From IMG/VR virus record IMGVR_UViG_2541047857_000014: a stretch of 64,000 nt of DNA; one strand, given 5' to 3'. How positions within the stretch are numbered: position 1 is the first letter of the stretch; each line of letters opens with the position of its first letter. Below, piece after piece: positions 423 to 52,092 of the stretch. A program made the position numbers and the translations under genes. The notes beneath the pieces are model-generated. The model ran no database searches. It worked only from the letters and a program-made list of their open reading frames with translations, and was not told where the DNA came from. This DNA is from a virus (lineage: Duplodnaviria > Heunggongvirae > Uroviricota > Caudoviricetes).

Positions 423-560
423 GAAAATAGACTGCTATATCTCAAAATTGAGAAGTAGCTTTGATAGTTGTATCACGGCTGTCACAAACAACTGGCAAAA
501 AACGACTACTATCTATAAATTATTGAGAGTTATCTCATTAACAAAAAAGAAGCTTGGTAA

Positions 561-2261: not shown

Positions 2262-2264
2262 ATA

Positions 2265-2290
2265 ACGGGTGGCCTCCTAGGCCACCCGTT
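2265..2290. terminator. hairpin terminator between AIPR-like gene and gene S
   Basis: Inverted repeat acgggtggcc/ggccacccgt with 5-nt loop followed by a T-rich run; lies between convergent genes. Confidence 0.55.
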
Positions 2291-2316
2291 CATAACTTAT
2301 TTTTAATCTAAAATTT

Positions 2317-3220: not shown

Positions 3221-3452
3221 TAATCATGTCCACTTTGTCTGCACAGACCGCCCAGGCGGCCTCCGTTTCATCCAGCAACGCGTTCAGATCACCGTTAGTG
3301 CGCGGCGTTGCCTGATCCAGCCGACACGGCGTCACTCGCGGACAACCACTGACGGTAAGCCATACCTCCGGTGAGTGCCGGACGTTTCCGCAGCCGGATA
3401 ATGTCAGCAGGCAAAGGAGTATCAGCCCAGCGGCGTAAATCCTCGTTCTCAC
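3162..3452 (-). CDS. lysC: LysC-like outer-membrane spanin lipoprotein (Rz1-type), overlapping lysB in another frame
   Basis: N-terminal signal MRTRIYAAGLILLCLLTLSGC with lipobox LSGC; begins inside the lysB frame as in P2 lysB/lysC. Confidence 0.6.
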   Translation of the reverse strand: MRTRIYAAGLILLCLLTLSGCGNVRHSPEVWLTVSGCPRVTPCRLDQATPRTNGDLNALLDETEAAWAVCADKVDMIIACQERNSEQTTIPAPRPQ

Positions 3453-3723
3453 GTTTCAGTTCCTCGATCCGGTGTTGTCGTTGTCTCAGCAGCGTGCTGG
3501 TCTGTTCTGCTTCGGCATAGAGCCGCGCCTGCTCCCGGTTATTGGTTTCAGTCAGAATGGACAGGCTGATAAGCTGGCTATTGCTCTTTGCCAGTGCCTG
3601 GCTTTTGCTCTGCAGCTCGTCTGCCTGCGTGCTGATGGTCTGGCTGGCATCAGCCAGCCGCCACGTCTGCCAGCCCAGCGCCGCCAGTAATAACGTCAGC
3701 ACAACCAGCAGCAACCGGTTCAT
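3295..3723 (-). CDS. lysB: LysB-like inner-membrane spanin (Rz-type)
   Basis: 142-aa ORF with N-terminal TM segment and coiled-coil-like body (ELQSKSQALAKSNSQL, IEELKRENEDLRRW); position after lysA. Confidence 0.7.
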   Translation of the reverse strand: MNRLLLVVLTLLLAALGWQTWRLADASQTISTQADELQSKSQALAKSNSQLISLSILTETNNREQARLYAEAEQTSTLLRQRQHRIEELKRENEDLRRWADTPLPADIIRLRKRPALTGGMAYRQWLSASDAVSAGSGNAAH

Positions 3724-4097
3724 GCTGCTACCTGTTGCGCCATCTGATTACGGGTGATCCAGAAGGCAATAACGGTCAGTAGATAAAAGACCAGGGTAAT
3801 AGCCCACCCCGTCCAGGCGAGACTTACAACAATCAGCAATCGCATCACCCAACTGGTAAATACGTTTTCTTTTCGAGTAATTGTCTTCAGCAAAGATGCC
3901 CTTAACTCCTGCCAGAGCGGGCCATTCTTAATTAACGCAGCCAGTGCTACCGGAATTACCGCCCATGTCAGCAAACAGGCTACCCAAACGCCGGACGCTG
4001 CCAGTACCGGAAAAATCCCCTGCGGATACACCATTGCTGCGATTAACAGCGCCATCCATAACATCAGAAACAGTCCGCTGATTAATTTCTTTTTCAT
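3720..4097 (-). CDS. lysA: LysA-like lysis accessory membrane protein
   Basis: ATG at 4097 directly after endolysin stop (start MKKKLISGLFLMLWMALLIAAMV); several hydrophobic segments; P2 lysis-cassette position. Confidence 0.55.
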   Translation of the reverse strand: MKKKLISGLFLMLWMALLIAAMVYPQGIFPVLAASGVWVACLLTWAVIPVALAALIKNGPLWQELRASLLKTITRKENVFTSWVMRLLIVVSLAWTGWAITLVFYLLTVIAFWITRNQMAQQVAA

Positions 4098-4098
4098 T

Positions 4099-4611
4099 TC
4101 AGTTTGCTCCCTGTAAACACCAGGCCATCTCCCGCGCACGGCGGTTATCCAGCCCCTGATTAAAAACACCTTTCACATAAACCCAGCGCGGCAACTGTCG
4201 GCATGCATCCGCCCAGCGCCGCTGATTGAGCAATTTCACCAGCGTGGAACTACAGGCATTGCCCGTCCCCACGTTGAAGGCAAACGACACCGTAGCGTCA
4301 TACACCTTCTGCGGCGGCTGTTGCTTCACACACCTTTCCAACGCCCGCTCCACTCGTAGCACGTTGGAGATCAGCCCTTCAGCTGCCTGTCGTTCCGTAA
4401 TAATTTTGCCGGGAATGACGCCCGACGTATTACCAATGCCGTCGGTCCAGACACCCGCGCTGCACTGATACGGCTGCAGACGACAGCCTTCATAATCAGC
4501 GATCAGTTTCAGTCCCTCCTCGGAGGTGTGAAGCTGCTGAAACCCCGGCAGCGTGGCAGCAATAGCCAGCACGGCCCCGACAAGGCAGCGTTTAACGATT
4601 GATGGATTCAT
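4099..4611 (-). CDS. K: endolysin, lysozyme family with N-terminal signal-anchor (P2 gpK-like)
   Basis: 170-aa ORF; N-terminal hydrophobic segment then lysozyme-like core (EGCRLQPYQCSAGVWTDGIGNT, FAFNVGTGN); overlaps holin gene end. Confidence 0.8.
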   Translation of the reverse strand: MNPSIVKRCLVGAVLAIAATLPGFQQLHTSEEGLKLIADYEGCRLQPYQCSAGVWTDGIGNTSGVIPGKIITERQAAEGLISNVLRVERALERCVKQQPPQKVYDATVSFAFNVGTGNACSSTLVKLLNQRRWADACRQLPRWVYVKGVFNQGLDNRRAREMAWCLQGAN

Positions 4612-4807
4612 AGTCCTCCCGCGAGATCTGCCCGTCGCGCAGAAGCTGGTAGGCTTTGTGTTTGTAGTACCAGTTGATAGCCAGCATCAGCACACCGATC
4701 ATCAGGCCGCCCAGCGTTGAGGCATCCTTGATGGACAAATCGCCCAGCCAGGCCAGCACGACGGCGATGCAATACGTGATAAAGGCGCTGATTCGCTCAA
4801 GCGTCAT
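4592..4807 (-). CDS. Y: holin (P2 gpY-like)
   Basis: 71-aa protein with two hydrophobic helices and charged C-terminus, immediately upstream of endolysin. Confidence 0.7.
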   Translation of the reverse strand: MTLERISAFITYCIAVVLAWLGDLSIKDASTLGGLMIGVLMLAINWYYKHKAYQLLRDGQISREDYESINR

Positions 4808-4810
4808 AAT

Positions 4811-5014
4811 TCAGTCCCATAGCTGGACGGTCTGCACGGTGGTGGTGGTCGGAATGTCCGGCAGCTCCACCTGCAGCCCGTGAGGTAAAAAGGGGCCGTA
4901 TTCGGCAAGCCCCGGATTTGCCTTCAGTACCTGCTCCGTGACACCCTGCGTGCGCCCGTAATGACGCCAGCAAAGTGCGTCCACCGTGTCATACTGATGC
5001 GCACGCACTTTCAT
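4811..5014 (-). CDS. X: tail protein X (P2 gpX family)
   Basis: 67-aa ORF MKVRAHQYDTVDALCWRHYGRTQGVTEQVLKANPGLAEYGPFLPHG closely resembling P2 gpX. Confidence 0.8.
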   Translation of the reverse strand: MKVRAHQYDTVDALCWRHYGRTQGVTEQVLKANPGLAEYGPFLPHGLQVELPDIPTTTTVQTVQLWD

Positions 5015-5478
5015 CAGATAAGCTCCACTGTGCAGTGCGGCGCATCCTGCACCCGGCTGATGGCCCAGCGGGCGTCACGCCATAAATCACCGCTTGCTTC
5101 CGCCAGTTCCTCGCCTCGCTTCGCACCGGATGCCGTGGCGTCATAGTCCTGGTAACGTTCGTTGAGCATGGCGCGTGCCCAGCAGTAAACCGCGTTGAAA
5201 TAGTGCTGAATGCGCTCGCTTTTGCCGTCCAGTTGTTCCGCCGGGACTTCTGCCAGCGAGGCATACCCCAGCATCTGCTGGCGTCTGCGAAACTCATACA
5301 GCTCTGCGTTGACCTCCGAAATTGCCGACAGGGCAACCTGTTTTAAACGCGGCTGCGTCACCGTGCCGTCAGTGCGCATCACACTGCGAAACTCCGACAG
5401 GTCCACATCAGGCCAGAACGGCGTATTCCTGATGATTTCCGCCTGTTCCGGTGCCTGTTCTGGCGCAACAAACTTCAT
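5014..5478 (-). CDS. L: head completion/stabilization protein L (P2 gpL family)
   Basis: ORF 5014-5541; ATG at 5478 is preceded by AGGAGA and gives MKFVAPEQ...; conserved position between M and X. Confidence 0.75.
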   Translation of the reverse strand: MKFVAPEQAPEQAEIIRNTPFWPDVDLSEFRSVMRTDGTVTQPRLKQVALSAISEVNAELYEFRRRQQMLGYASLAEVPAEQLDGKSERIQHYFNAVYCWARAMLNERYQDYDATASGAKRGEELAEASGDLWRDARWAISRVQDAPHCTVELI

Positions 5479-5573
5479 GCTGCTTTCTCCTGAAATAGAG
5501 GGCGGTGGACGGGGTTTTGATGTGGCAGTGCCTTTCGCCACCCCGTGCCGCCCGTGCGCGGGGGCACGTTCTG

Positions 5574-6224
5574 TCAGCGGCTGTCATTGCGCAGTCTGCG
5601 CTCTAGCTGCTGTTTGTCTTTTTTCACGCCACAGCGGGGATCGAGCTGTAACGCATGGTTGAGATGATTAAGGGCAGACGCCGGATTTCTTTCACTCAGG
5701 ACAGCGCCAATCGCTTTATGCAGACGCGCCCGTGACTGGTCCGGCATATCCATACCGTCTGTCAGCTCCAGGGTCTTCAGCAACAGATCGGTATCAAAGC
5801 CGGTGGCGGCAAGCATTGCGCTCTGGGCTGCATCTGCCATTTCCTCTGCCAGCACGGTCTGCACGTTGCGGTTACCTAACGGCATCACCCAGCCATGACG
5901 CAGGGCGTGACGCCCGATCTCCAGCGCCCCGGCATAATCTCCGGCATCAATGCGCCACAGCATCACGTACATCAGCACGTCATCCTGTTGAGCGCCTCCG
6001 GCAGCCAGGACACCCTCCGCCCAGGCGGCGTACTTCGGCAGCAGCTCCACCTTGATTTCCGCTTTTTTGACCGTGGACTGAACGCCCTTGAGACGGCGGC
6101 GGTCTTCCGCCAGTTGCAGCAGCATCAGGTCATAGCCCGACGCGTGGCGAACGCTGCCGCCCTCGCGGGCGGCCTGTTCAGCCTGAACGCGCAGGCGATG
6201 CTGCCGTGCGGGACTCAGGCTCAT
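5574..6224 (-). CDS. M: terminase endonuclease subunit M (P2 gpM family)
   Basis: 216-aa ORF in conserved head-gene order N-M-L. Confidence 0.8.
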   Translation of the reverse strand: MSLSPARQHRLRVQAEQAAREGGSVRHASGYDLMLLQLAEDRRRLKGVQSTVKKAEIKVELLPKYAAWAEGVLAAGGAQQDDVLMYVMLWRIDAGDYAGALEIGRHALRHGWVMPLGNRNVQTVLAEEMADAAQSAMLAATGFDTDLLLKTLELTDGMDMPDQSRARLHKAIGAVLSERNPASALNHLNHALQLDPRCGVKKDKQQLERRLRNDSR

Positions 6225-6227
6225 GAA

Positions 6228-7286
6228 TTACGCTCCGGTTTCTGCTGCTGCGGCGCTGAAGTCGCCAATCTGGATGTTTTCCACCAGTGCGGCGCAGCGG
6301 TAGTCCTCAACCACATAGGCTTCGTTAACGGATTCAAAGTTTTCAATCCGGTCACGTTTCGGGTTGTCGATAACTGAGCGGCGGCGGGTGTCTTCCTGCC
6401 AGTAGATGGACAGGTTATCCAGACGGGTGATCAGCAGTGCATTCGGCGGGAAGAACGGCGCACGCACGGCCTGCAGGCCACCCATGCGTTTCTGACTGAT
6501 GATCATATCAGCAGCCAGTTTTTCACTGTTTTCCTGCTCTTTGTTGACCAGCGGGAAATACTTGTCAGACAGCAGTTCACGACCGCAAATCACCACCAGA
6601 TCGTCATCGTCCTGGTAGACCACATCGATAAGCTCATTGACGGCATCCATCACCACGGCGTCCAGGTTGGCATATTCGCCACCTTTCCCGACTTTCACCG
6701 CACCCGGTGTGGTTTCACCGCCCGTGGTGGTGCTGCCCATGACGTGATCCGGTGCATCTTCACGGATTTTCTGCAGCCAGCCTTTGTTCACATCCTGCAG
6801 CAGCGGGTTTTCGCTACGGTTGGAGGTTTTCGCACGCTTCACGCCGTTAAAGCCGATCATGATGCGGTCCAGAGCCTGACGTTTCACGATGGCGTCACGG
6901 ATGCGCACCTGGAAATCCTGAAACTTCGCCCACAGGTCCAGCTTCGCGTAGGTCAGCACCGTGTCAAAGTTGGTCTGCTCGCATTTATATTCCACATCGA
7001 CCATCAGCGTCGGATCGACAGGTTCACGCTCTTTCGCGGTGGTGTCAGTGGTTCCGGCAATGGTGCTGCCAACTCCCAGCCCCAGCAGCTGACCGGACTG
7101 CTCAGTCACTGGCGTGACGTTAATCAGCGTCAGGAAAGCGGCGGACTGCTGGATCTGGTCTTCCAGCGTCTGCTGCACAGACGGCTCCACGGTGAACTTG
7201 CTGGACAGTTCTTCAACTGCCACACCGTTCAGACGCGCCAGCTGCTGCAGGTAAGCGTTAAAAGCAAAGCGGGTATTCTTCTTCAT
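6228..7286 (-). CDS. N: major capsid protein N (P2 gpN family)
   Basis: 352-aa ORF directly downstream of scaffold gene; size and order as in P2. Confidence 0.85.
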   Translation of the reverse strand: MKKNTRFAFNAYLQQLARLNGVAVEELSSKFTVEPSVQQTLEDQIQQSAAFLTLINVTPVTEQSGQLLGLGVGSTIAGTTDTTAKEREPVDPTLMVDVEYKCEQTNFDTVLTYAKLDLWAKFQDFQVRIRDAIVKRQALDRIMIGFNGVKRAKTSNRSENPLLQDVNKGWLQKIREDAPDHVMGSTTTGGETTPGAVKVGKGGEYANLDAVVMDAVNELIDVVYQDDDDLVVICGRELLSDKYFPLVNKEQENSEKLAADMIISQKRMGGLQAVRAPFFPPNALLITRLDNLSIYWQEDTRRRSVIDNPKRDRIENFESVNEAYVVEDYRCAALVENIQIGDFSAAAAETGA

Positions 7287-7302
7287 CGGGTTTTGTGCTC
7301 CA

Positions 7303-8136
7303 TCAGCAATTGGTCAGAGTGTCAGCGGGGGCGTTACCGCCTGTTGCACGCTGGCGGTAGTCCTGGCGACTGTCTTCATGACTCAGCTTGTCCACCAGTT
7401 CGTTAAAGGCGGTTTGCTGTGCCTGCAGGGCAGTCTCCAGCTCAGACAGGCGTTCTTCCTGCTCAGACAGGGATTTTTCGGTGCGTGCGCTCAGGTTCTG
7501 CTGCTCAGTGGCGACCAGCTCCACGGCCTTATGCACATCAGAGAACCGGGCGTCATCGGACTGCTCTTTTTTGGTAAACAGCGCCGTGACGCGGGCAAAC
7601 AGGGACGGTTTGTCGTCCTGGATTTCTTCCAGTTCGATCACCGTTTCCTCTGCAGCGGTAAAGAGATTGGCAGGATTCTGCTTGCGGTTTGCCAGCAGGT
7701 TATGGGCTGCACTGGCGCTGAATGTCAGCATTTCCGTACCCAGACTGGCAGGGTCATCAGTGGCAGCCAGGCCGACCAGATAGGCTTTGCCCGTATCAGC
7801 GAACTTCGGGCTGACTTCCATAGAGGTGAATAATTTCTGGCCTTTTTTCACCAGTTCCACCAGGGACTCCGTTGGCTCAACGTCGGCATACAGCGCCATC
7901 TTGCCTGCCAGCGGACCTTCCGTGATTTCTTCAGCAAACAGCGCCGTCACCTTGCCGTAGCGGTTAAAGGTGCTGTCCGGCAGATAAGACTTGATGTGCT
8001 CAAGGTTAATCAGCGCGGTATACACCGCCGGGTTGTAGCTGGCTGCCATCTGTTCCAGCCATTCACGCTGGATTTCGCGTCCGTCGGTGGTGGCACCTTC
8101 CACCCCGATGCGAAAACGCTTTGCTTTCACTGTCAT
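7303..8136 (-). CDS. O: capsid scaffolding protein O (P2 gpO family)
   Basis: 277-aa ORF, acidic coiled-coil C-terminal half; divergent from P/Q as in P2. Confidence 0.85.
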   Translation of the reverse strand: MTVKAKRFRIGVEGATTDGREIQREWLEQMAASYNPAVYTALINLEHIKSYLPDSTFNRYGKVTALFAEEITEGPLAGKMALYADVEPTESLVELVKKGQKLFTSMEVSPKFADTGKAYLVGLAATDDPASLGTEMLTFSASAAHNLLANRKQNPANLFTAAEETVIELEEIQDDKPSLFARVTALFTKKEQSDDARFSDVHKAVELVATEQQNLSARTEKSLSEQEERLSELETALQAQQTAFNELVDKLSHEDSRQDYRQRATGGNAPADTLTNC

Positions 8137-8278
8137 GAGCCGTGCTCCGTTAGAAAAAACTTACTGGAGCCTTATGGTTGCGGTGATGGGGGCAGTGAAA
8201 CAATGCGCGGTATTTGTACCGACAACCACACAAACCGCAGGCGGGGAAAGCCTTCATTCAAGGCTGTAGGTTTGTGCC

Positions 8279-17626: not shown

Positions 17627-17851
17627 CTATCGTTCTTTGTTCTTACGGTAACGTTCAAGAGGAGATACATTTTTTCGTATCGTCTCTTTAACCTGCTCTC
17701 CCCGTAAAAACGTCCCATCCCTTAGCGTGAAAAAGTAACTGCCATCGCCCGACAACGACGGATAACAACAGAGCAAATCATCTTCAGGTACTGAATAACT
17801 CTCCCCTCTGTAACGAAACTGATAAACCACTTCACTTTCCGCTGCATACAT
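17627..17851 (-). CDS. hypothetical small phage protein
   Basis: 74-aa ORF with GGAGAAAG RBS 5 nt before the ATG. Confidence 0.5.
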   Translation of the reverse strand: MYAAESEVVYQFRYRGESYSVPEDDLLCCYPSLSGDGSYFFTLRDGTFLRGEQVKETIRKNVSPLERYRKNKER

Positions 17852-18018
17852 TTTGACTTTCTCCGTTTCCTCGTGGTCAATTCAGACAGCAATTCATCTT
17901 GTGAATGACATGGATGCCAGCGTTTACCATCCTCACCCATGATCCAGCCGTGACCGTAGTGCATTGCCGGGCTTTGTTTTACCAGCAGCGATGCAAATGA
18001 TGGTTCTTTCGTCAGCAT
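17722..18018 (-). CDS. hypothetical small phage protein (overlaps next gene by about 130 nt)
   Basis: ATG at 18018 directly after CII stop; frame stays open into the following gene, so the real end is uncertain. Confidence 0.35.
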   Translation of the reverse strand: MLTKEPSFASLLVKQSPAMHYGHGWIMGEDGKRWHPCHSQDELLSELTTRKRRKSKCMQRKVKWFISFVTEGRVIQYLKMICSVVIRRCRAMAVTFSR

Positions 18019-18025
18019 AAGCACC

Positions 18026-18535
18026 TCACAGCAAACCGAATGAAGCACCGAGGCCAGTCACGGTATCAACTGCACTCACCATCGCAGGATTAGCCTGTAA
18101 ACGGGCCTGCAATGAAACAGCCGCCAGCGCCATCAGTCGTGTTACAGAGTTAATGCTGCTGATAGCATCACGACGACCGGCACTAGTTTTTACATCACCA
18201 GATACCGCACCTGCTGCAACACGCCCGATCTCTGCAGTTGCGCTCATGACGTAATGCGGCAGTTTCTCTTTTGCCACCTCATTAATCGGTACACATGGCA
18301 GACAATGAATCTGTGCCAGAAAACCATCTACCAGCGTTGAATCTTCAGTCAGATCGGTAAGCAGCCAGATTTCTGGTGCGGTTAATAAATGAGGCTGAGC
18401 TGGGTTCAGCTTGTTCCGCAGAATCTGCACATTCATGCCTGCACGTTCTGCCAGTTGCACCAGGTTGTGACGCAGTGCAAAAGCCCTACAGGCTTCATCG
18501 AAATGCGGATGTTTGGAAATCTTGTAATCAAACAT
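18026..18535 (-). CDS. CII-like regulatory protein (phage 186 CII family)
   Basis: 169-aa ORF immediately downstream of the Apl/Cox-like gene; sequence ([43 protein letters not shown]) resembles 186 CII as I recall it. Confidence 0.65.
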
Positions 18536-18567
18536 GGTGCCCCCTTAGAAAGTTCCCATAATTGAAC

Positions 18568-18810
18568 TTACTTACCAACAATGACGCGGAAGTTGGAATG
18601 ACCGAGGGATTCACGGACCTGATCAGTTTTGTACATCAGATAACGAAGGCTTACGCGGCCTTTATTTTTTTCTTTCTTGACCATGTACTTAGCAAGTTGA
18701 CCATGGTGAATTTTTTGGTAAACAGAGCCACGGGAAATGCCCTCCCACTCTGCGAACTCTGCAGGCGTAGCCATCTCTTTTGGTACACGAATTGAAATAT
18801 CAGTACTCAT
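18568..18810 (-). CDS. Apl/Cox-like excisionase and transcriptional regulator
   Basis: 80-aa first gene of the early operon, divergent from the repressor gene. Confidence 0.6.
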   Translation of the reverse strand: MSTDISIRVPKEMATPAEFAEWEGISRGSVYQKIHHGQLAKYMVKKEKNKGRVSLRYLMYKTDQVRESLGHSNFRVIVGK

Positions 18811-18931
18811 AGTGCAGTATCTCTTACTTTGTGTGCGTGTTAGTTCGTTTTAGCTCGTCTCTTTAACTCTCACATCAAGAGACACGAAGACATTACGATC
18901 TTGATTCAAGATTGTCAAATGGAGATTACCA
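18811..18931. promoter_or_regulatory. divergent lysis/lysogeny promoter-operator region
   Basis: 120-bp gap between divergent repressor and Apl-like genes, as in P2/186 switch regions. Confidence 0.5.
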
Positions 18932-19564
18932 ATGTTAAACATCAGAATGGGTTCCGATACGGGAGGTAAGGCAGCTATTGAGAGGCTGCTTGAGGCTTAT
19001 GGATTCACAACTAAGCAGGCATTAAGCGAGCACCTGAATGTCTCAAAAAGTACTATGGCAAACAGAGTGTTACGTGACAGTTTTCCTGCTGACTGGATAA
19101 TTCAGTGTGCACTAGAAACCGGTGTTTCGTTACTTTGGTTAGCCACTGGACAGGGAAGCATGAAAGAAGGATACGAGTCTGAGAAAAGATCTCATAACGA
19201 GAACAAACAAGCAATTAAACCGTTATCCAAACTCATAACTCCATCTATTCCTAAAGGAACCTTGGAAAATGGACAACTCAGTATTGATGAAGAGATTTTC
19301 CTAGACCACAGCATATTACCTGCAGATTATGAAGAATCGATGTTCTTAGAAACCCCTACTGATTGTTATCTCATCGATAAATCAGTTAAACAAGTCAGCA
19401 ATGGATTCTGGCTTATCAATATTGATGGAATGATTATTATTGCAAAAATCATGCGGATTCCCGGCAATAAGATTGTAGTAAATCAAGATGAAGCGTCTTT
19501 CGAGTGCTCTGCCGATGATGTGGAAGTTATTGGGCGTGCAGTCAAAGTAATAAAGAGTATCTAA
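18932..19564 (+). CDS. immunity repressor (186 CI-like)
   Basis: 210-aa ORF with N-terminal HTH-like segment (TKQALSEHLNVSKSTMANR), upstream of and co-oriented with int. Confidence 0.7.
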   Translation: MLNIRMGSDTGGKAAIERLLEAYGFTTKQALSEHLNVSKSTMANRVLRDSFPADWIIQCALETGVSLLWLATGQGSMKEGYESEKRSHNENKQAIKPLSKLITPSIPKGTLENGQLSIDEEIFLDHSILPADYEESMFLETPTDCYLIDKSVKQVSNGFWLINIDGMIIIAKIMRIPGNKIVVNQDEASFECSADDVEVIGRAVKVIKSI

Positions 19565-19566
19565 AC

Positions 19567-20586
19567 ATGACTGTCAGAAAACAGCCAAACGGTAAATGGT
19601 TGTGCGAGTGCTATCCCAATGGACGCAATGGCAAGCGCGTGCGTAAGCAATTTGCTACGAAAGGCGAAGCCATTGCTTTTGAAAGCTTCACAATGGAAGA
19701 AGTGAACAAAAAACCATGGCTGGGGGAAAAGGAAGATCGGCGACACCTATCAGAATTAATTGAGCAGTGGTATTCCCTGTATGGTCAAACACTCGCAGAC
19801 CCCAAGCGCCTCATAGCGAAACTTAGAATTATCTGTAATGGTCTAGGCGATCCCATCGCTTCAGAACTGACAGCCGGTGACTTTACGAAATACCGCGAAG
19901 CACGGTTAAAAGGTGAAGTACGAAATGAAGATGGCACGTTTATGTCGCCCGTTAAGCCCCGCACGGTAAACCTTGAACAGCGCAATCTATCATCTGTTTT
20001 TGGTACACTGAAAAAGCTGGGCCACTGGTCAGCCCCCAACCCGCTTGCTGGGCTGCCAACATTTAAAATTGCTGAGAGTGAATTGGCGTTCCTGACCCCG
20101 GAAGAAATTAAACGTCTGCTGGATGCCTGCGCCGATTCTCAAAGCTCCAGCCTGCTTTTGATTGCAAAAATATGCCTGGCCACCGGCGCACGCTGGAGCG
20201 AAGCCGAAAACCTGCAGAGTCATCAGGTATCAAAATACCGTATCACTTATACCAAGACCAAAGGCAAGAAAAACCGAACTGTGCCTATTTCTAAGGATTT
20301 ATATGAAGAACTGCCTAAGAATAGGGGGAAGTTATTCACCCCATGCAGAAAAGCCTTTGAGCGTGCAGTAAAGCGAGCCGGTTTAGAACTACCAGAAGGC
20401 CAATGTACCCATGTTCTGCGCCATACATTTGCCAGTCATTTTATGATGAACGGTGGAAATATACTGGTACTGCGCGATATTCTTGGACATGCCGATATAA
20501 AAATGACGATGATTTACGCTCATTTTTCCCCAGATCATCTTGAAGATGCAGTAACTAAAAACCCATTAGCAACCTTGATGGATTAA
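19567..20586 (+). CDS. int: tyrosine integrase (P2/186 Int family)
   Basis: 339-aa ORF with C-terminal HVLRHTFASHFMMNGG...LGHADIKMTMIYAH catalytic motifs; adjacent to att repeat. Confidence 0.9.
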   Translation: MTVRKQPNGKWLCECYPNGRNGKRVRKQFATKGEAIAFESFTMEEVNKKPWLGEKEDRRHLSELIEQWYSLYGQTLADPKRLIAKLRIICNGLGDPIASELTAGDFTKYREARLKGEVRNEDGTFMSPVKPRTVNLEQRNLSSVFGTLKKLGHWSAPNPLAGLPTFKIAESELAFLTPEEIKRLLDACADSQSSSLLLIAKICLATGARWSEAENLQSHQVSKYRITYTKTKGKKNRTVPISKDLYEELPKNRGKLFTPCRKAFERAVKRAGLELPEGQCTHVLRHTFASHFMMNGGNILVLRDILGHADIKMTMIYAHFSPDHLEDAVTKNPLATLMD

Positions 20587-20590
20587 GCAC

Positions 20591-21814
20591 ATGCGCAACA
20601 TTATCGAATTAGAACAGATATCGGAAGAACTAAAAAAACATGAACTATTGCAACCCCCATTCATTGCCGAGGGAAAACTAATTTCTGACTTTTCTAAGAG
20701 AGTCGAGTGCTATTTAGAATTAATTGACTCCATTAGAAATAAATATCCTGACAACGAGATAATTAAACAAGTAAAGATTCGCACAAAATCAATAATATAT
20801 TTATCTGATAAAATAATAGAAACTCTTAAGCTATTTTTAATAGGAAATGTTAAAGAAGCTTATAAAAAATTCGATTTGGCAATTACCAAGTCATCAATGC
20901 ATACTCATCTTTATAAGATGACTGTTCCTCTAACTAAATTATGCAACCCACACACCCCTTTATTTCGCGTAAGGAAAAGTGAGTGCATCCTAAAACAAAG
21001 AGAAGAATTATTTCATATACCATTTAAAAATAGACATTTAGTTAGCGCACAAAGATTTTCTGTATCCGGTCTTCCATGTTTATATCTTGGAACATCAATA
21101 TTTGTATGTTGGCAAGAAATGGGAAAACCTGACTTTGATAAACTTTACATATCTTCCTTCATATCCGATAAAGAAAATTCAAATATAAGAATTTTAGATC
21201 TTGGGTACAATTTAACATCTGCACTTCGTACAAAACCGGGAGATCTTTGGTATTCATTCGAACAAGGTTCAGATGATGATTACGATCTAAATAATGATAA
21301 TTTCATGGATCAAATTAATGATAAAATTTCAAAGTTGATTGCATGGCCTTTAGTCCTTGCATGTAACTATACAAAAGATAATGAAAACGCAAGTTTTAAT
21401 AAAGAATACATAATACCAAACCTATTAATGCAATGGATTAGTAGTGACAGAAACAAAAATATATCAGGGATATCGTATCGATCAACAAAGATATTAAACC
21501 AAAAAGATAGCGATATTGGGATTAATGTAATTATCCCCCCAAAAATAGAAAACATAGTTGAAACCAATGATACCCACTGTCCTGTTTTAAAAAAAATATT
21601 TAGAGTTACAAACCCTGTTTCCTGGACTGTGTTTAGTACACTAGAAGCCACCCCCTATCTATACAAAAATAATTTTAATTTTTCGACCTATAATCCCGCA
21701 AAAGGATGGATTGAAGACTTTGATGAATCCCTTGTTGAACATTATGAAAATACCACTTTTAGAAAAGTTGAACTCCTTATTCATCAAATGATGAAGTATG
21801 AATATTTAAAATAA
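20591..21814 (+). CDS. RES-domain protein (putative NAD-targeting toxin/effector), 407 aa
   Basis: Segment LFRVRK...AQRFSVSGLPCLYLGTSIFVCWQEMG fits the RES domain pattern (R-x-FNxxG-x-P-x-LYL-x-S...E); ATG 4 nt after int stop; strongly AT-rich. Confidence 0.55.
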   Translation: MRNIIELEQISEELKKHELLQPPFIAEGKLISDFSKRVECYLELIDSIRNKYPDNEIIKQVKIRTKSIIYLSDKIIETLKLFLIGNVKEAYKKFDLAITKSSMHTHLYKMTVPLTKLCNPHTPLFRVRKSECILKQREELFHIPFKNRHLVSAQRFSVSGLPCLYLGTSIFVCWQEMGKPDFDKLYISSFISDKENSNIRILDLGYNLTSALRTKPGDLWYSFEQGSDDDYDLNNDNFMDQINDKISKLIAWPLVLACNYTKDNENASFNKEYIIPNLLMQWISSDRNKNISGISYRSTKILNQKDSDIGINVIIPPKIENIVETNDTHCPVLKKIFRVTNPVSWTVFSTLEATPYLYKNNFNFSTYNPAKGWIEDFDESLVEHYENTTFRKVELLIHQMMKYEYLK

Positions 21815-21929
21815 GAGTGGCGGCATAATGGCGGCAAAGAGTTAAAAACACATAAAACAAGGTAATACATCGTAAACTTAAGTGATTGAAAATTAACATA
21901 AATAGTTGTTTTGCAACATGTTATAATGG

Positions 21930-21975
21930 TATGTAGGAATTTCGGACGCGGGTTCAACTCCCGCCAGCTCCACCA
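21930..21975 (+). other. ssrA: 3-prime fragment of ssrA (tmRNA) forming the prophage attachment-site repeat
   Basis: atgtaggaatttcggacgcgggttcaactcccgccagctccacca matches the E. coli tmRNA 3-prime end as I recall it; no tmRNA body upstream. Confidence 0.7.
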
Positions 21976-27692: not shown

Positions 27693-29379
27693 CGCTACTC
27701 ACTATTAAATACTTTAATTTGCATCAAGAACAGCAGTGTCAGCCCTAGGTCTCGGACTTTGTACCGCTTATCTTGTCTTCAAAAATCAGCTCGCATCCTG
27801 CACAGTTCAGCGCATTACGTTGTAGATCTGTGTTCTGGTCATTTGTTGACACACGTACATAGCCAATAAGCATGGTAGATCTCCCTGACAAAAGCAGGAA
27901 TGATGCCATTTGCTCGTTATTTCTGCATTTTCATAAACGTTGGTTTGGGAGAAGCGGCTACACTGCATGTGGGCAACCGTGATCAACAAATCTCTGATAT
28001 ACCTTCCACGAGGTTGCCGGGTGGCAATGGAAATTTTGTGATTCGTCAACCTGACGGGCTACTCGTACAGATTGATCCGACAAATAAAAGCCCTCATTTG
28101 GGGATTGATGTTATTACTGACTATGATGATGGCATCGGAGTTGATAAAAGGTCTGCTGTTGCGTCAGCAACATTGCCATCTGTAGGTACTTTTAATGTGG
28201 TGCGAGTTATCCTCCCGGTAACAACAAGAGGTTCTGGTGCTAAATCCAGCAATACAGTAGGTTTATGAGCGACCACTGTTAGCACTACTGTCGGTGTCAG
28301 TGGTGATAAGTCCATTTCGGGTAAAGTCGCCATTCCACTCGACGATACCTTTCCATGCAATACTAGCTTCACAGATATCGTGATTGCAGGATAATAGTTA
28401 AAGCAGTATTAAATTCAGCCGTTATTACAAGTTTGGATGGGCAAGTAATCGTTCAAAACTATGAGGGTGAAGGACCGGTTTCTGTTTCCGTTATAGAAAA
28501 TTATATTGACGTATGTGTGGATATTCTGGGTTATCCCCCACTGGGTGCAGAAATTAGAGCTAACGCTGGTGGTCGGCTCTTATGGTTTGATTACCTACCC
28601 TCATGAAAAGATGTGCAAGTGTTGCCCGCTGAAATCAAATATAACACTGAAACGTGAGAAGTAAATACAAACACCAAACCGGGTCATTGGCCTGGCAATG
28701 CTACCACTAGTGGTCTGATAAGCCCAGAACAGAAATAAGATGATTAGTAACGGGATAACCTTAATGCGGTAGAACTTAGCGCTGCATCCGGTGCGCCAGA
28801 AACACAATGTCAGACACCTCCTGAAGCTGAAACCGCATGAAACGCGGCGCTGTAGCTGTAATTATTGGCGGCACCGCGTCTGATGCAGGCAGCAAAGACC
28901 TAAGCCAGCGCTTTTCTGCCTTCATTAGCCGCGGTGAGGCCTGCAAATACCAGTGAAGCACCGGGATTGATGCGATCGGAACATCAATAAGTGTCGGCCG
29001 TTCTACTTCTGCCGCACCGGATGTAGCGACATGTTCTAGCGCGGCCTGGGTCTCCCACCTCGCACTATACCACTTCACTTCCTGGCTTATCGGAGGACCA
29101 GTAGTAGCTTTGTCGGGCTAATCATGCGTTGCTGTGTTGTTTTTTACTTCTGAAATTTCGGAGTTTTATTCGATTTCAGCGGGCTACACCGGCACATCTT
29201 CCCAAGAATTTGGGGACTCAGTACAACCTAGAGCACAACCACTGTTATGGACACTTGGTTTATCTACTGAAGGATAAGCAAGAAAATGCTCATATGTTGC
29301 TATGGTTATATTAATAGTAGAATCATAAAGCCTACCCGCATCATCATAGTCTGAAACGGTTACATCCAGATAATAACTA

Positions 29380-30157
29380 TTAACTCCGCGACAATTGAAT
29401 ATTGATTTCACTATTACCGTCCACTGACGAACGATGAAAATGCGATATCTCGTGGAAAGGTATCAATGGGTGGTTCGTCCACTTTAAACACCATCGTCTG
29501 GTCACTACCGATGCCGACGGAAGAGCAAATCCTGGTTGCTTCAGACCCTGTTGTATTAGTAAATTTAGCACCATAGCCTCTCGTTGATCCCGAGGTGATA
29601 GCTCGCAGCACCTTATTAGTAAATACAGTTGGCTCTTTTGCTGTCGGCACATAACGCTTTTAAGCACCGGCGAGCGCATAAGCCTAACCACTCATTACAT
29701 TCACCCGCACAGCACCCATTTTATTTGCAGTAAACACCTGTGCCAGTAGCGGGTATTGTTCACGAGACACAGCCGCTCCATTGCCATCCGGAACCGCTCA
29801 GAACGATGTGTCTGAAAGTCGTGGAACCGGCTCACCAACAGGTAATGCAGAGCCTTCTCCCAAACCAAGGTTTTCGAGAGCCGTTTTCACCGTGCCGTCC
29901 GATTTGATATCGCTAAACGGATTCTTGCGGCTTAACAGCAGCGCACGAAGCGCGGTAAGCAGCTGGTCGTGCCGCGCCTTCTCCAGACTGGCACCGGATG
30001 CCTCCACCACGCTGCAGAGTTCTTCCTGCAACATGTCAAAGTAGTCATCATCCAGATCGGTGGCAGGCGTGCCTGTCTGGGGGTTACCACGGGTAAAACC
30101 GTTCTTACCCGCGCCGAACTTATCCTTCTGCGCGGTTTTCGTGTCTATACGATGCAT
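29380..30157 (-). pseudogene. tail fiber gene, N-terminal domain intact (29798-30157) but body disrupted
   Basis: [47 protein letters not shown] is the conserved tail-fiber N-terminus of Mu-like enterobacterial prophages; the ORF stops after 119 aa and continuation lies in other frames. Confidence 0.45.
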
Positions 30158-47484: not shown

Positions 47485-47586
47485 TTAAAGTGGGATCTAA
47501 CTCTAATAATTTAAAAAATTTAATTGGGTCTTGATATTAATCACATAGACTCAATGCTCTTTAGTTCTTACATAGGTGGTTGTATT

Positions 47587-48027
47587 ATGAGTATCCCCAG
47601 TTTAGATGTTCATAAAGTTGTTAAGTGCGCAGAGCATAAAAAGGCTTTAGATGCAATATCTCTCAAACTTAAGAATAACATTATTGACTCAAGCTCTGAA
47701 TACGATTTTCTTGGCGACACAATAATTTTCAATAAAGATAAAAAAAATAGGTTAACCCTCAAACTTTCAACATATGAACTAGAACTTATTTTCAAAGAAA
47801 CACTGCTAGTCATTGATGAAGCTCCTGTATTGAAGTTTGCTGCCATTGACCCAACCGATGAAAATAACAACGAGCTGATTGATTTATTTTTATCCAAAGG
47901 TGGATTTATTTATATTAGAGAATACAAATCCGAGCCACATTATGAGTATGGCGACACTTCTCTATTTTTACATATACTTGACGCTACTCTTAAAGAGCTT
48001 AAATCTGCAAACAAAATATCCTATTAA
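47587..48027 (+). CDS. hypothetical protein, AT-rich cargo gene
   Basis: ATG at 47587 preceded by AGGTGG; very AT-rich; antisense to the surrounding late operon. Confidence 0.5.
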   Translation: MSIPSLDVHKVVKCAEHKKALDAISLKLKNNIIDSSSEYDFLGDTIIFNKDKKNRLTLKLSTYELELIFKETLLVIDEAPVLKFAAIDPTDENNNELIDLFLSKGGFIYIREYKSEPHYEYGDTSLFLHILDATLKELKSANKISY

Positions 48028-48133
48028 ATAAATTTTTGCTAACATAGCCCCGCGCCATGACAAGATTTTCTGTTCTAGATGCAAGGGCTATGTGTGAATA
48101 TCTATAAACAAAAACCCCATCCGGTGATTTTTG

Positions 48134-48385
48134 TCATTTTTTAGCCATCTCAATTGCGGCATCAAAAAGTCGTTCAAGAATAAAATCAGGGTACTGTAAT
48201 TTTTCTTGCTCGATATGAAGCTCATAAATTTTCCCTTCCCACTCCCATTTAAAATTAAATCCAGAAGCAGAAGGTGCGAAATGTGTTTTAGCTTTAGGGT
48301 TAGCGTAACCAGCAACAGTCAACACATCAAACTTAAAATCTTGAGGTTTAATACGCATAATCATATCCTTTGCCAAGTTCATCAT
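48134..48385 (-). CDS. hypothetical small protein, AT-rich cargo gene
   Basis: 74-83 aa ORF (internal ATG with AAGGA RBS likely true start), convergent with 47587-48027. Confidence 0.4.
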   Translation of the reverse strand: MMNLAKDMIMRIKPQDFKFDVLTVAGYANPKAKTHFAPSASGFNFKWEWEGKIYELHIEQEKLQYPDFILERLFDAAIEMAKK

Positions 48386-48455
48386 TATTCTTCTCGATTA
48401 TAAAACAATGAATAAAATCATTAAAGCATAGACGTTAAATATCCTCAAAATGTGA

Positions 48456-48893: not shown

Positions 48894-49366
48894 ACCTGAA
48901 TCTCTTTGACCGTTCCGCCGGCTTCTTTGAATTTTGCAATCAGGCTGTCAGCCTTATGCTCAAACTGACCATAACCAGCTCCCGGCAGTGAAGCCCAGAT
49001 ATTGCTGCAACGGTCGATAGCCTGACGAATATCACCGCGATCAATCATCGGTAAAGCACCACGCTCTTTAATCTGCTGCAGTGCAACAGCATCCTGGCTT
49101 TTTGGAGAGAAGTCTTTCAGTCCAAGCTGTTTACGGTATGCATCCCACCAGCGGGAAAGAAGCTGGTAGCGCCCGGCAGCCGTTGATTTGAGTTTTGGGT
49201 TTAGCGTGACAAGTCTGCGAGGGTGATCGGAGTAATCAGTGAATATTTCTCCGCCCACAATGACGTCATAACCATGATTACGTGTCGGTTGTAGCCCATT
49301 ATCCGTTCCTTCTGACCAGGCCACCATATCGAGGAAAGCTTTACGCTGAGGATTAAGATTTTGCAT
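48890..49366 (-). CDS. endolysin, lambda R-like lytic transglycosylase
   Basis: [20 protein letters not shown]...[13 protein letters not shown]...[20 protein letters not shown] is near-identical to lambda R as I recall it. Confidence 0.85.
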
Positions 49367-49757
49367 TTTTCACCCCTGTCAGTCGTTCCCAGAAGTACGT
49401 CAGTGCAACCGAACCCATCGCACCACTAATCCCCGCAGTTGCGAGAATCATGTAAATACTGAATCCACTTTCGATACTGATTAGGCCACCAATAACACCG
49501 GTGAATCCTGATACAACTATCTGAGCGAGGGCATTTATCCAGCTCCACGTTGCTTTACTCTGCTTCACATCAATCAGGTAACGGACAAGCCCCCCCCAAC
49601 CTGCGATGATCAGCAAAACAAGCCAGAACGCTCCGGCAAGATTCTCTTTTTCGTGCATATGAATAGCCGCAGTTTCGCCTCCGACAGAAAATCGGAGCGT
49701 GAAATGATATGTTGATTTATTATTAATTCGAAAATTACATTCTAATTCATCAGGCAT
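49353..49757 (-). CDS. putative holin
   Basis: ORF with three hydrophobic segments immediately upstream of endolysin; likely true start at internal ATG about 49658. Confidence 0.55.
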   Translation of the reverse strand: MPDELECNFRINNKSTYHFTLRFSVGGETAAIHMHEKENLAGAFWLVLLIIAGWGGLVRYLIDVKQSKATWSWINALAQIVVSGFTGVIGGLISIESGFSIYMILATAGISGAMGSVALTYFWERLTGVKNAKS

Positions 49758-49809
49758 TGATGATTTTATAATAATAAAGGCCGTTCGTTACGGCCTTTAT
49801 TATTGATAT

Positions 49810-50145
49810 TTATTTTACATCCCAAGGTAGTTCCTCAAGAGAGAAGACTAATTCATTATCAATAATTTCGTATTCTGCATAACCTTCAACCTCTCCTGAG
49901 AAGTTATTGTCAACGCATCCTTCATAATAGCTATATGGTGCTATAAAGTGAAACCCATATTCATCTATCTCTGTGATTTCAAAATTGTAGTAATCGTAAG
50001 AATATCGAATATCATCATCAGAAATAGAACTAAGTACATAGTTATTAAATTTATCGGAATGCTTAACGATAAGTTCTGACAACGCGTCAAGATTCTCTGG
50101 AGAGATATTTCCTAACGGTAATCTGTACTCAACGGCATTAATCAT
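49810..50145 (-). CDS. hypothetical acidic protein, AT-rich cargo gene between Q and lysis genes
   Basis: 111-aa ORF, highly acidic C-terminus, AT-rich, followed by hairpin about 49779-49800. Confidence 0.5.
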   Translation of the reverse strand: MINAVEYRLPLGNISPENLDALSELIVKHSDKFNNYVLSSISDDDIRYSYDYYNFEITEIDEYGFHFIAPYSYYEGCVDNNFSGEVEGYAEYEIIDNELVFSLEELPWDVK

Positions 50146-50194
50146 ACAACCTCCTTTTTAACTGATATGAGGTTATATAATGTGTTTCAGTACA

Positions 50195-50226
50195 AGTAAA
50201 TAAAAACCCGCTCAACAGCGGGTTCG
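50195..50226 (-). terminator. putative late terminator (tR-prime-like) downstream of Q
   Basis: On the minus strand: aacccgctgttgagcgggtt stem-loop followed by TTTTATTTA. Confidence 0.4.
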
Positions 50227-50330
50227 TGAAAATTATCAACGGCAGACATACAAAGCCCATCGTTGAGAAAATCTTATCCATATTTTTTGAAAAATGCAAG
50301 CTTCATGTCACTATCTTCGGCGAAAATCAC

Positions 50331-51083
50331 TTATCTCGTCACCTTTCTCAATTGTGTTTCAGCATATGCTTCTTCCTGCCAGCACTTTGTTACTAGTTTA
50401 TCAATTACGTCTGCATATCCTTTGTACCACTGATAATCAGTCAGGTCTGGAACCAGCTTCTGGACATGACGTCGTGCCAGTGTAGTCGGTAAACGGCTAA
50501 ACCGGTTTCCATTGCAACGCCCACAAGTCTTATAAACAGGCGTGCCATGAAGCCGGGTTCTTTTTTCATCCAGGACAATACCTTTACCCTTACACCCTCT
50601 GCACGCCGTGCTGACTTCTCCCTTGCCATGACAATGCTGACACAGTTCCTTCACCCACTCTTCTTTGATAACGGATTCCCCGCTTCTGGAATGTTTCACC
50701 ACTTCGCGCAATACATTATGAAATCCAGTACCAGTACAATGCTCACAGCGAGCCTTACTTGCCGCAGACCTGGAATAATCAGCAAAGGCAAAATTCACAA
50801 GGTAAGGGATGATCTGTAACCGGGTTTCTTCACTCAATTTGTTCAATGTCGGGTTATCCAGTGCCATCGCGTAATTGAGCAGGCCTTCAATCGCAAACTG
50901 AGGATCCTGAACACCAACTTTTGCCAGGAATAAGGCAAACCCAAGCGGTGCTTTCGACTGCACCATCCCCTGCGCAGCCATTACATCCGTAATTGTTAAA
51001 CCACCCGAGCCTGTCGCCGATGCGTCATCGCTCAATTTTGGAGATTTTGGGGAGTAATATTTCGGTAAGGCTTCAAGGTTCAT
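50331..51083 (-). CDS. late antitermination protein Q
   Basis: Cys-rich CEHCTGTG...CQHCHGKG...CRGCKGKG zinc-binding pattern and position upstream of lysis genes; start MNLEALPKYY. Confidence 0.7.
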   Translation of the reverse strand: MNLEALPKYYSPKSPKLSDDASATGSGGLTITDVMAAQGMVQSKAPLGFALFLAKVGVQDPQFAIEGLLNYAMALDNPTLNKLSEETRLQIIPYLVNFAFADYSRSAASKARCEHCTGTGFHNVLREVVKHSRSGESVIKEEWVKELCQHCHGKGEVSTACRGCKGKGIVLDEKRTRLHGTPVYKTCGRCNGNRFSRLPTTLARRHVQKLVPDLTDYQWYKGYADVIDKLVTKCWQEEAYAETQLRKVTR

Positions 51084-51096
51084 GCTCGTTCTCCAC

Positions 51097-52092
51097 TTAC
51101 ACCAGTACGCCAATTGCCAGCGCACGATCGATAAAACGAAATATCAGCTCCAGCTGGGAGCCATACATCTCTTCAAATGCCACGGTATCCGCATGCAGCT
51201 CGTCGTGATGCTTTCTGCACAAAGGCAACACAAAAAGGTCATGCGCTTTTGTACCCATTCCACCCTGTCCGTGGCCTATCAGGTGGTGGGGATCATCAGC
51301 GGGCTTTCCACAACATGCACACGACTGTGTCTTAACCCAGCGCGTGTACTTTTCATTAACCCAGCGGCGACGTTTTGGGCGTAACATAAAAGACTCCGGC
51401 GACTCCGGATCCACTTTCAGCGCCAGCACCTTTTTCGCTTTATCCTGGATGATGCTGGTGGCAGGAACCGAAGGCACAAGGTCACTTTCCCGGGTGACAG
51501 ACGGCACAACAGGCTTCGGTAATCTCAGTGCCTTACGGGCTGCACTTTCCGGTAAGGCATCCGCCAGATCATTACGAACCAGCCACCAGCACAGTTCCGG
51601 CATTGTCACAACGTGACTGTCATCAAAACCGAGATCCCGACGCACAACAGACAACACCCAGCGGGCACAGTTATCCGTTGCCATTGATTCCAGCCGTTCC
51701 GTGAACTGATCGCGAAGCAGGTTATCGCAGTGCCAGCACAGACGGATTGCGCCCGGCGCGTGTCGCATTGTGGTCATGTTCTCGCTGTGCCATCCGGAAT
51801 GAGGCCACTGACAGCCCTTTTCACGAAGTAACCAGCTTTCAAGACATTCCACACCCCCCGCACGACGAATAACTGCCTCATTGCGGAACACGGCCCGAAT
51901 GGCAGGATCATCCGCCAGCGGTTGTGATGCCGCCGGAACGGCACCACTGGCAAAAGATGAATAACGTTCCGGCTCAGGCTCCAGCAGGACACGCCCCTGC
52001 ATAAACAGGGGCATCAGCTCTGAACCGGGCCTGAACAATACGATCCCCATACGCGGGGCAATTTCAGGGGTCAGTAGTGCTCTCACGGTCAC
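51097..52092 (-). CDS. DUF968-like phage protein
   Basis: 331-aa ORF with C-terminal CACCGKPADDPHHLIGHGQGGMGTKAHDLFVLPLCRKHHDELH motif, in nin-like region. Confidence 0.5.
   Translation of the reverse strand: MTVRALLTPEIAPRMGIVLFRPGSELMPLFMQGRVLLEPEPERYSSFASGAVPAASQPLADDPAIRAVFRNEAVIRRAGGVECLESWLLREKGCQWPHSGWHSENMTTMRHAPGAIRLCWHCDNLLRDQFTERLESMATDNCARWVLSVVRRDLGFDDSHVVTMPELCWWLVRNDLADALPESAARKALRLPKPVVPSVTRESDLVPSVPATSIIQDKAKKVLALKVDPESPESFMLRPKRRRWVNEKYTRWVKTQSCACCGKPADDPHHLIGHGQGGMGTKAHDLFVLPLCRKHHDELHADTVAFEEMYGSQLELIFRFIDRALAIGVLV

Follow-up and report, generated by a model that had tools for sequence, protein, structure and literature searches.

We analyzed a stretch of 64,000 nucleotides from the IMG/VR virus record IMGVR_UViG_2541047857_000014 (Caudoviricetes), referred to below as the window, and focused on the interval between the antiterminator gene Q and the holin gene. 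This interval of an Escherichia coli prophage holds ORF111, an open reading frame (ORF) for a protein of 111 amino acids (aa), which lies at 49810..50145 on the minus strand and has a product of about 13 kDa. Together with a candidate promoter, a strong Shine-Dalgarno (SD) sequence and an intrinsic terminator, this ORF makes up a cassette inserted 3' of the terminator tR', and ORF111 is very likely a moron. The features of the interval are, from upstream to downstream:

50331..51125, minus strand: antiterminator Q gene (PF03589 Antiterm, E 3.1e-54; phrog_127, E 1e-108), the upstream flank, outside the cassette
50271..50299, minus strand: putative late promoter pR' (TTGCAT, 17 nt, TAAGAT)
50259..50264, minus strand: AACGAT element, 6 nt past the -10 hexamer of pR'
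50198..50225, minus strand: tR'-type intrinsic terminator (9-bp stem with 5 GC pairs, U run; -14.9 kcal/mol, z -5.6)
50172..50200, minus strand: promoter-like element of the cassette (TTTACT, 17 nt, TATAAC), with hexamers conserved in orthologous loci
50149..50156, minus strand: SD sequence AAGGAGGT, as read from the sequence
49810..50145, minus strand: ORF111, of the orphan family phrog_13663, for a 13-kDa acidic protein
49769..49805, minus strand: intrinsic, potentially bidirectional terminator 3' of ORF111 (16-pair stem; -20.2 kcal/mol, z -7.6)
49696..49768, minus strand: AT-rich tail of the inserted segment, which runs to the resumption of homology with phage PhiR47_2
49353..49658, minus strand: LydA-type holin gene (PF16083, E 1.5e-21; phrog_785, E 1e-39; RefSeq start at 49658), the downstream flank, outside the cassette

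The RefSeq gene for an 'antitermination protein' shares its stop codon with the Q ORF but has a shorter frame of 753 nt, and the holin gene is followed by the genes for endolysin and then Rz. The hexamer pair TTGCAT/TAAGAT of pR' was absent from the output of the promoter scan, and its assignment is a reading by eye. The region of the AACGAT element reads CTCAACGATGGG, and the same motif occurs at two further loci (L026 and L029). The pR' promoter of lambda is followed by a sigma70-dependent pause element, and the AACGAT element has that geometry. The tR' hairpin at 50198..50225 is the upstream boundary of the cassette. The hairpin at 49769..49805 is the stronger of the two and has A-rich and U-rich flanks; this terminator would shield the lysis genes from the promoter of the cassette. 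A leader RNA of ~65 nt running from pR' to tR' (50198..50264, minus strand) is predicted to fold into the terminator stem and a further stem at its 5' end (-21.3 kcal/mol, z -3.3), and its sequence is 88-90% conserved in the SfV, mEp460 and Stx2c phages. A search of 49300..50600 against Rfam returned nothing above threshold. PasD-type prophage small RNAs have been reported beside PF03589 Q genes (bioRxiv 10.64898/2026.05.13.724894).

The composition of ORF111 sets it apart from its surroundings. Its guanine plus cytosine (GC) content is 33.3% (28.6% at third codon positions, GC3) compared with 49.1% for the window; sliding-window GC goes down to 31-32% over ORF111 and is 31-33% across the cassette, whereas the flanking Q and lysis genes have about 47-50%. 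The encoded protein contains 24 Asp and Glu residues versus 5 Lys and Arg residues, which gives a net charge of about -19, and with -0.171 charges per residue it tops the acidity ranking of the 81 non-overlapping window ORFs of at least 80 aa (the runner-up has -0.068). An earlier note on this DNA had proposed an AT-rich gene for an acidic 111-aa protein, located between Q and the holin and equipped with its own terminator. Each of these properties holds, as seen from the 33% GC, the net charge of -19 and first rank in acidity, the Pfam Antiterm match upstream and the LydA-type holin downstream, and the strong hairpin 3' of ORF111. The description was thus correct, except that the start given for the feature, 49779, falls within the terminator hairpin and not at the end of the ORF.

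ORF111 is under purifying selection: relative to the Salmonella and Citrobacter orthologues, the proportion of nonsynonymous differences (pN) is 0.17-0.18 at a saturated proportion of synonymous differences (pS) of ~0.79, and the ratio of nonsynonymous to synonymous substitution rates (dN/dS) between these two orthologues is 0.28. RefSeq lists the product as a hypothetical protein (WP_000606308.1), and the same gene layout is found in Escherichia coli UTI89. When the protein sequence was read by eye, neither a signal peptide or hydrophobic N-terminal segment nor a long hydrophobic stretch of the kind present in antiholins was evident. ORF111 is a real gene under selection, and its product is a soluble acidic protein.

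The borders of the inserted segment follow from a comparison with related phages. Over 50202..50340, from the end of Q through pR' and tR', the window shares 88-90% identity with Q-proximal sequence in SfV, mEp460 and Stx2c-converting phages. This SfV-type homology ends at 50202, the foot of the tR' hairpin, and the SfV record has a terminator annotated at the position homologous to tR'. On the other side, PhiR47_2 has the same holin (93.6% identity, matching the window at 49300..49690), and its similarity picks up at ~49690, about 30 nt ahead of the holin start. Because SfV-type homology stops upstream and PhiR47_2 homology resumes downstream, the stretch at ~50201..49696, roughly 0.5 kb, is on this comparison a foreign segment. 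SfV shares Q, pR' and tR', yet its slot holds orf47 and a DNA methyltransferase gene (orf48) with its own terminator; PhiR47_2 has no cargo gene and a non-coding Q-holin interval. ORF111 is thus present in some phages and absent from the same place in close relatives, both SfV-type phages and PhiR47_2, and the cargo reading of the earlier note gains support from this absence from phages that share its Q module or its holin.

Morons in the sense of Hendrix and Juhala include stx downstream of Q in Stx phages and bor and lom in lambda. ORF111 resembles such genes of the lambdoid late region in being an extra, AT-rich gene of some mosaics that lies close to Q and has a promoter-like element as well as its own downstream terminator (the hairpin at 49769..49805). 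The TTTACT/TATAAC element was not flagged by the generic promoter scan. The Q-proximal late region is where lambdoid phages keep most of their morons (PMC3430580). In contrast to the known lambdoid morons, the product of ORF111 is a cytoplasmic acidic protein, as far as sequence alone tells, and not a toxin, an outer-membrane protein or a lipoprotein factor. As a kind of element, ORF111 is therefore an ordinary moron; as a protein, it is outside every characterised family. It makes a well-delimited, testable candidate and contradicts nothing in current understanding.

The intact Q-holin interval was found in 131 of 5426 complete E. coli genomes (~2.4%), with nearly all copies at least 99% identical, and ~900 additional E. 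coli genomes match its Q-proximal part only. The strains with the interval include UTI89, S88, IHE3034, APEC O18, NU14 and ATCC 11775 and belong mostly to lineages of extraintestinal pathogenic E. coli (ExPEC) and avian pathogenic E. coli (APEC).

We used several searches to define the family of ORF111. The phrog_13663 profile, annotated as 'unknown function', matches the protein over its full length (residues 1-111 on profile positions 1-111, E 9.4e-54). A word-indexed search of 5.8 billion proteins recovered the E. coli and Shigella copies and only two orthologues, from Salmonella (72%) and Citrobacter freundii (69%), whereas an exhaustive hidden Markov model (HMM) search of 1.84 billion cluster representatives gave 26 clusters at E <= 1e-3, including 12 at E <= 1e-10. 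Nearly all of these clusters have lengths of 106-115 aa. Further named members, all annotated as hypothetical, were obtained by profile search from Enterobacter, Citrobacter, Salmonella, Duffyella and Erwinia; all relatives with a named host belong to prophages of Enterobacterales, and relatives are also encoded on 26 IMG/VR contigs. A tblastn search of 50,697 GenBank phage genomes (INPHARED) gave no relative at E <= 0.01; all known members come from prophages or uncultivated viral contigs. ORF111 has no match in Pfam or NCBIfam, PADLOC-DB contains no family matching it at E <= 1, and when 25 family members were scanned against Pfam, the only matches were isolated singletons at noise level. 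No literature was found under its accession, locus tag or PHROG number.

Two properties are shared across this family. The invariant or nearly invariant positions F33, D45, R47, Y48, G76, C77 and W108 are held in the motifs DxRY, [FY][FY]xGCxDxN and LDETxW, and acidity is kept in all 43 members examined, with net charges from -8 to -22. N-terminal extensions predicted for some members (P0018, P0024, P0047 and L045) were considered as signal peptides and rejected, since they cross the upstream terminator hairpin; we regard them as mis-called starts.

The position of the gene is nearly constant. In all six genomic lineages examined, a Q gene lies upstream of the ORF111 family member, and a holin gene lies downstream in all of them except a decayed Erwinia prophage; the loci on the 26 IMG/VR contigs follow the same pattern. 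Altogether, the examined loci come from E. coli, Salmonella, Citrobacter, Enterobacter, Duffyella, Erwinia and IMG/VR contigs. The identity of the neighbors, in turn, changes from locus to locus. The upstream Q proteins belong to PF03589 at some loci and to PF06530/DUF1133 at others, and some neighbors have no Pfam match; the adjoining holins represent five distinct Pfam types (Phage_holin_3_3, 8, 3_1, 3_7 and 2_1/2_3); and the nearby endolysins include GH24, GH19-like and T4-type lysozymes. Among the scanned IMG/VR neighbors, 12 of 16 downstream genes encode a holin and two an N6_N4 methyltransferase, while seven of 14 upstream genes encode a Q protein and one an N6_N4 methyltransferase. No further gene was consistently linked across the loci examined. 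A fixed position with changing partners speaks against a function that depends on one particular Q, holin or endolysin and fits a cargo hot spot.

N6_N4 methyltransferases are a recurrent co-cargo of the Q-holin slot. SfV orf48 and others of this type occupy the same place just 3' of tR', with their own terminator ahead of the holin, and co-occur with ORF111 relatives at several loci. They differ from ORF111 in that they are unrelated to it and act by DNA modification, and their co-location reflects a shared cargo hot spot and not a shared function. Their recurrence is compatible with a theme of restriction evasion, or may merely reflect the hot spot. Pairing of ORF111 with an immunity or antitoxin gene was rejected, as the divergent neighbors of 289 aa in Salmonella and 293 aa in Erwinia are unrelated and have no Pfam domain. 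Readings as a chaperone of a type III secretion system (T3SS) or as a bacteriocin immunity protein were dropped for want of a fold match and of a conserved adjacent effector or toxin. In the Citrobacter freundii prophage with an ORF111 orthologue (L007..L011), another gene (about 2181..3275, minus strand) codes for a 364-aa protein that contains a pore-forming colicin domain (PF01024). This gene lies upstream of RusA on the opposite strand, ~3 kb from the orthologue, in that lineage only.

Regulatory elements are conserved along with the gene. The orthologous loci of Salmonella and Citrobacter retain the upstream hairpin, the hexamers TTTACA and TATAAC at a spacing of 17 nt and a GGAGG-type SD sequence, whereas their spacer and flanks have diverged and their Q gene comes from another family. 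In the larger subfamily, 11 diverse loci have a common block that ends in TTTTTG[AG]CATAA and is followed by a TAnnnT hexamer with invariant T, A and final T, 15 nt past a TTGACA-like hexamer. This block looks like a promoter, although the 15-nt spacer is atypical. The conserved upstream block extends over ~45 nt (loci L013, L015, L021 and L024-L043) and reads CATTTCTGAyTT..AAAA..ATTTTTGACATAA, 15 nt, TAnnnT, with a possible direct repeat of ATTTyTGAC. A plain sigma70 promoter does not account for the invariant CATAA or the 15-nt spacer, which may mark the binding site of a regulator.

On the downstream side, a terminator-like hairpin with a T run occurs within 110 nt past the ORF in 17 of 22 related loci, compared with 6.9% of random 110-nt segments from the same loci. 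Among the five loci without it, three have a methyltransferase gene next instead of a holin gene, one is the decayed Erwinia prophage and one is unexplained. A terminator between the ORF and the holin would be expected if ORF111 has a promoter active in the lysogen, since read-through from it into the lysis genes would be lethal. Judging from these comparisons, the conserved terminator appears to be the strongest indirect pointer to autonomous expression of ORF111.

AlphaFold models were obtained with four sequences (predicted local distance difference test, pLDDT, 74) and with 25 family members (pLDDT 86; predicted template modeling score, pTM, 0.78). The model of ORF111 has a strand at residues 3-10, helices at 19-28 and 30-41, and strands at 48-50, 56-60, 64-73, 82-95 and 98-105; the C-terminal tail, which includes the invariant W108, is of low confidence. 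The predicted fold is alpha+beta, with two helices on one face of an antiparallel sheet. In strands 64-73, 82-95 and 98-105, column statistics show hydrophobic columns alternating with mostly acidic ones, and the mostly acidic strand positions are E56, E66, E91, E93, E95, E102 and D104/E105. Because of this alternation, one face of the sheet should be a conserved carboxylate surface, and the strand topology of the model would bring D45, R47, Y48, G76, C77 and W108 together at one pole. In fold, ORF111 is matched best by NTF2/SnoaL/ketosteroid-isomerase-like, VirB8-like and cystatin-like roll proteins, which share with the ORF111 model the packing of helices against a curved antiparallel sheet. 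A Foldseek search of BFVD gave nothing at E < 1e-3, sequence searches of the PDB with the 4- and 25-sequence profiles returned only noise (E >= 0.18), and none of the structures of Ocr, ArdA, Arn, Ugi, Gam or anti-CRISPR proteins was among the matches listed.

From these features we propose that ORF111 could be expressed in two modes. Its own sigma70-type promoter would give low or modest constitutive transcription, both in the lysogen and upon DNA entry, and this transcript would stop at the ORF111 terminator and leave the lysis genes silent. Late in lytic growth, RNA polymerase modified by Q would pass both terminators and transcribe ORF111 strongly. The product would then act stoichiometrically, as an acidic decoy covering the surface with which a basic target protein binds nucleic acid; the likeliest target would be a restriction or defence nuclease of the host or a DNA-binding protein of a competing phage. 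Taken as a whole, the model of an autonomous cassette with two-mode transcription and an acidic decoy falls somewhat short of an even chance. For ORF111 as an acidic inhibitor of a basic nucleic-acid-binding protein, the reading we prefer, we would put the probability at roughly 0.35. An anti-restriction role, which the earlier note had suggested, is a plausible hypothesis.

The HNH, terS and terL genes lie just past the lysis genes. This is the HK97-type cos arrangement, and the cassette should therefore lie ~3 kb from the right end of the virion DNA. In lambda, the right end of the genome enters the cell first. Closeness to this end is one consideration that may favor a role of ORF111 at the entry stage.

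One known protein for comparison is T7 Ocr (gp0.3), which mimics DNA and thereby inhibits type I restriction-modification systems and bacteriophage exclusion (BREX) systems. Ocr and ORF111 are both small stand-alone phage accessory proteins, alike in size and charge bias. They differ in fold, as Ocr consists of helices only and the predicted structure of ORF111 is dominated by beta-sheet, with two helices, and in timing, as the Ocr gene comes first in expression upon DNA entry and ORF111 belongs to the late operon. ORF111 has no sequence match to solved structures, nor is Ocr among its structural matches listed. In numbers, 24 acidic and 5 basic residues in 111 aa for ORF111 compare with 34 and 6 in 116 aa for Ocr (PMC3439906). 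The strong negative charge expected of a DNA mimic is conserved (-19 in ORF111, -8 to -22 in the 43 relatives), and no homology to Ocr, ArdA, Arn, Ugi or their like was detected in sequence or fold.

Several of the proteins ArdA, Arn, Ugi, AcrF2, AcrF10 and AcrIIA4 are built from an antiparallel sheet flanked on one side by helices and work as nucleic-acid mimics. ORF111 has in common with ArdA (PMC2731889), T4 Arn, Ugi and the three anti-CRISPR proteins that it is a small acidic protein of a mobile element. Three points weigh against the DNA-mimic idea: no structural relative was found, the invariant site with Arg, Cys and Trp has a specific look, and the gene forms part of the late operon. 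It is a doubtful proposition that ORF111 founds a family of acidic inhibitors (mimics of DNA or RNA) that is new and distinct in structure, carried by lambdoid prophages of Enterobacterales as a plug-in cassette at the tR'/holin junction and directed against host defence or rival phages.

Four other explanations were weighed. ORF111 might act in lysogenic conversion as a defence or superinfection-exclusion protein, made by the prophage and blocking an incoming phage, e.g. by sequestering a DNA-binding or replication protein; the benefit would then go to the host and the prophage, rather than lie in evasion of defence by the phage. A promoter-like element and an insulating terminator are expected of genes expressed in lysogens, and further AT-rich cargo of the window relates to defence (PD-T7-1, E 1e-196, and AIPR/AbiU). 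We nevertheless consider this role unlikely, as ORF111 has no PADLOC match, lacks the enzymatic or membrane domain usual in exclusion proteins and has no conserved partner gene that could be found, and as small acidic cytoplasmic proteins encoded singly are more familiar as phage-made inhibitors than as defences.

The fold matches raise the alternative of a small-molecule binder or enzyme, in which D45, R47, Y48, C77 and W108 line a pocket and the protein binds or modifies a metabolite or an immune signalling molecule, as a sponge-type anti-defence, with its acidity being incidental. The NTF2/SnoaL/ketosteroid-isomerase-like proteins among the best matches are pocket-forming, and the invariant residues, which include a lone Arg and a lone Cys, should fall at one pole of the sheet judging from the strand topology. 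We regard a function of this kind as distinctly improbable.

A late function intrinsic to the phage, i.e. lysis timing, assistance to Q-dependent transcription or a late factor that is packaged or prepares the progeny, would explain the near-constant site at the start of the late transcript, directly ahead of the holin in nearly all loci, and the slot is shared with a late-expressed methyltransferase. Related phages with the same Q module or holin, however, manage without ORF111, and its association with five unrelated types of holin, endolysins of several types and Q proteins from at least two families makes a specific partner among them unlikely. No antiholin-like hydrophobic segment is evident. 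Homology to a lysis regulator, which the earlier note had named as a finding that would overturn its proposal, was not detected in Pfam, PHROGs or NCBIfam: no lysis-related family of Pfam or PHROGs matches, phrog_13663 is the only match, and the gene is not co-inherited with one type of holin or endolysin. There is thus little to recommend a late function. Just as little probability attaches to a modulator of host physiology or virulence in ExPEC and other enterobacterial lysogens, e.g. an inhibitor of H-NS or HU: the exact protein is common in B2/ST95-type ExPEC and APEC strains such as UTI89, S88, IHE3034 and APEC O18, lambdoid late-region morons have often been proposed to benefit the host (PMC3430580) and a DNA mimic that binds HU is known (DMP12, PMC3643605), but members also occur in prophages of Enterobacterales from plants and the environment (Erwinia, Duffyella) and on many IMG/VR contigs, a distribution that gives no hint of a pathotype-specific role.

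The window contains other AT-rich cargo. A 469-aa ORF at 11127..12536 (minus strand, 35% GC, no Pfam domain) matches PADLOC PD-T7-1 with E 1.3e-196 and is a candidate anti-phage defence gene, and a 566-aa ORF at 561..2261 (plus strand, 34% GC) matches Pfam AIPR (E 1.6e-25) and PADLOC AbiU (E 1.7e-24) and is likely an abortive-infection gene. Two ORFs without a Pfam domain were found at 20591..21814 (plus strand, 407 aa, 31% GC) and at 60783..61673 (plus strand, 296 aa, 28% GC), the latter with a weak PADLOC match to Csx27 (E 1.4e-5). Between the Rz and HNH endonuclease genes, GC falls to 29-36% in a second AT-rich island (47500..48400). It includes an 83-aa ORF at 48134..48385 (minus strand), for which RefSeq has a shorter hypothetical form (48134..48358) and PHROGs gave only a match at E 0.1, and a 167-aa ORF at 47524..48027 on the opposite strand that is unannotated in UTI89. 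Both ORFs are without a match in Pfam, NCBIfam and PADLOC, and a tblastn search of the GenBank phages found nothing for the 167-aa ORF.

Similarity of the window to the prophage region of UTI89 begins only at 21931; from there on, the identity is 98.7-99.5%, and the match is interrupted at 28255..29497. The PD-T7-1 ORF falls in the part that is not colinear with UTI89. At the corresponding place, the left flank in UTI89 runs from clpB to ssrA, while positions 1..21930 of the window instead have AT-rich defence-like ORFs, and no gene for a tRNA or transfer-messenger RNA (tmRNA) was found in the window. The source strain therefore differs from UTI89 on the 1..21930 side of the window.

If ORF111 has no role in inhibition, it is one further well-delimited moron. 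If it does inhibit a restriction or defence nuclease or a DNA-binding protein of a rival phage, it would add a new fold to the few known among nucleic-acid mimics, and the tR'-holin junction of lambdoid prophages would be a place to mine for counter-defence cassettes, as the methyltransferase in the same slot already hints. With carriage in ~2.4% of complete E. coli genomes and in other enterobacterial prophages, a phenotype of ORF111 would have some epidemiological reach.
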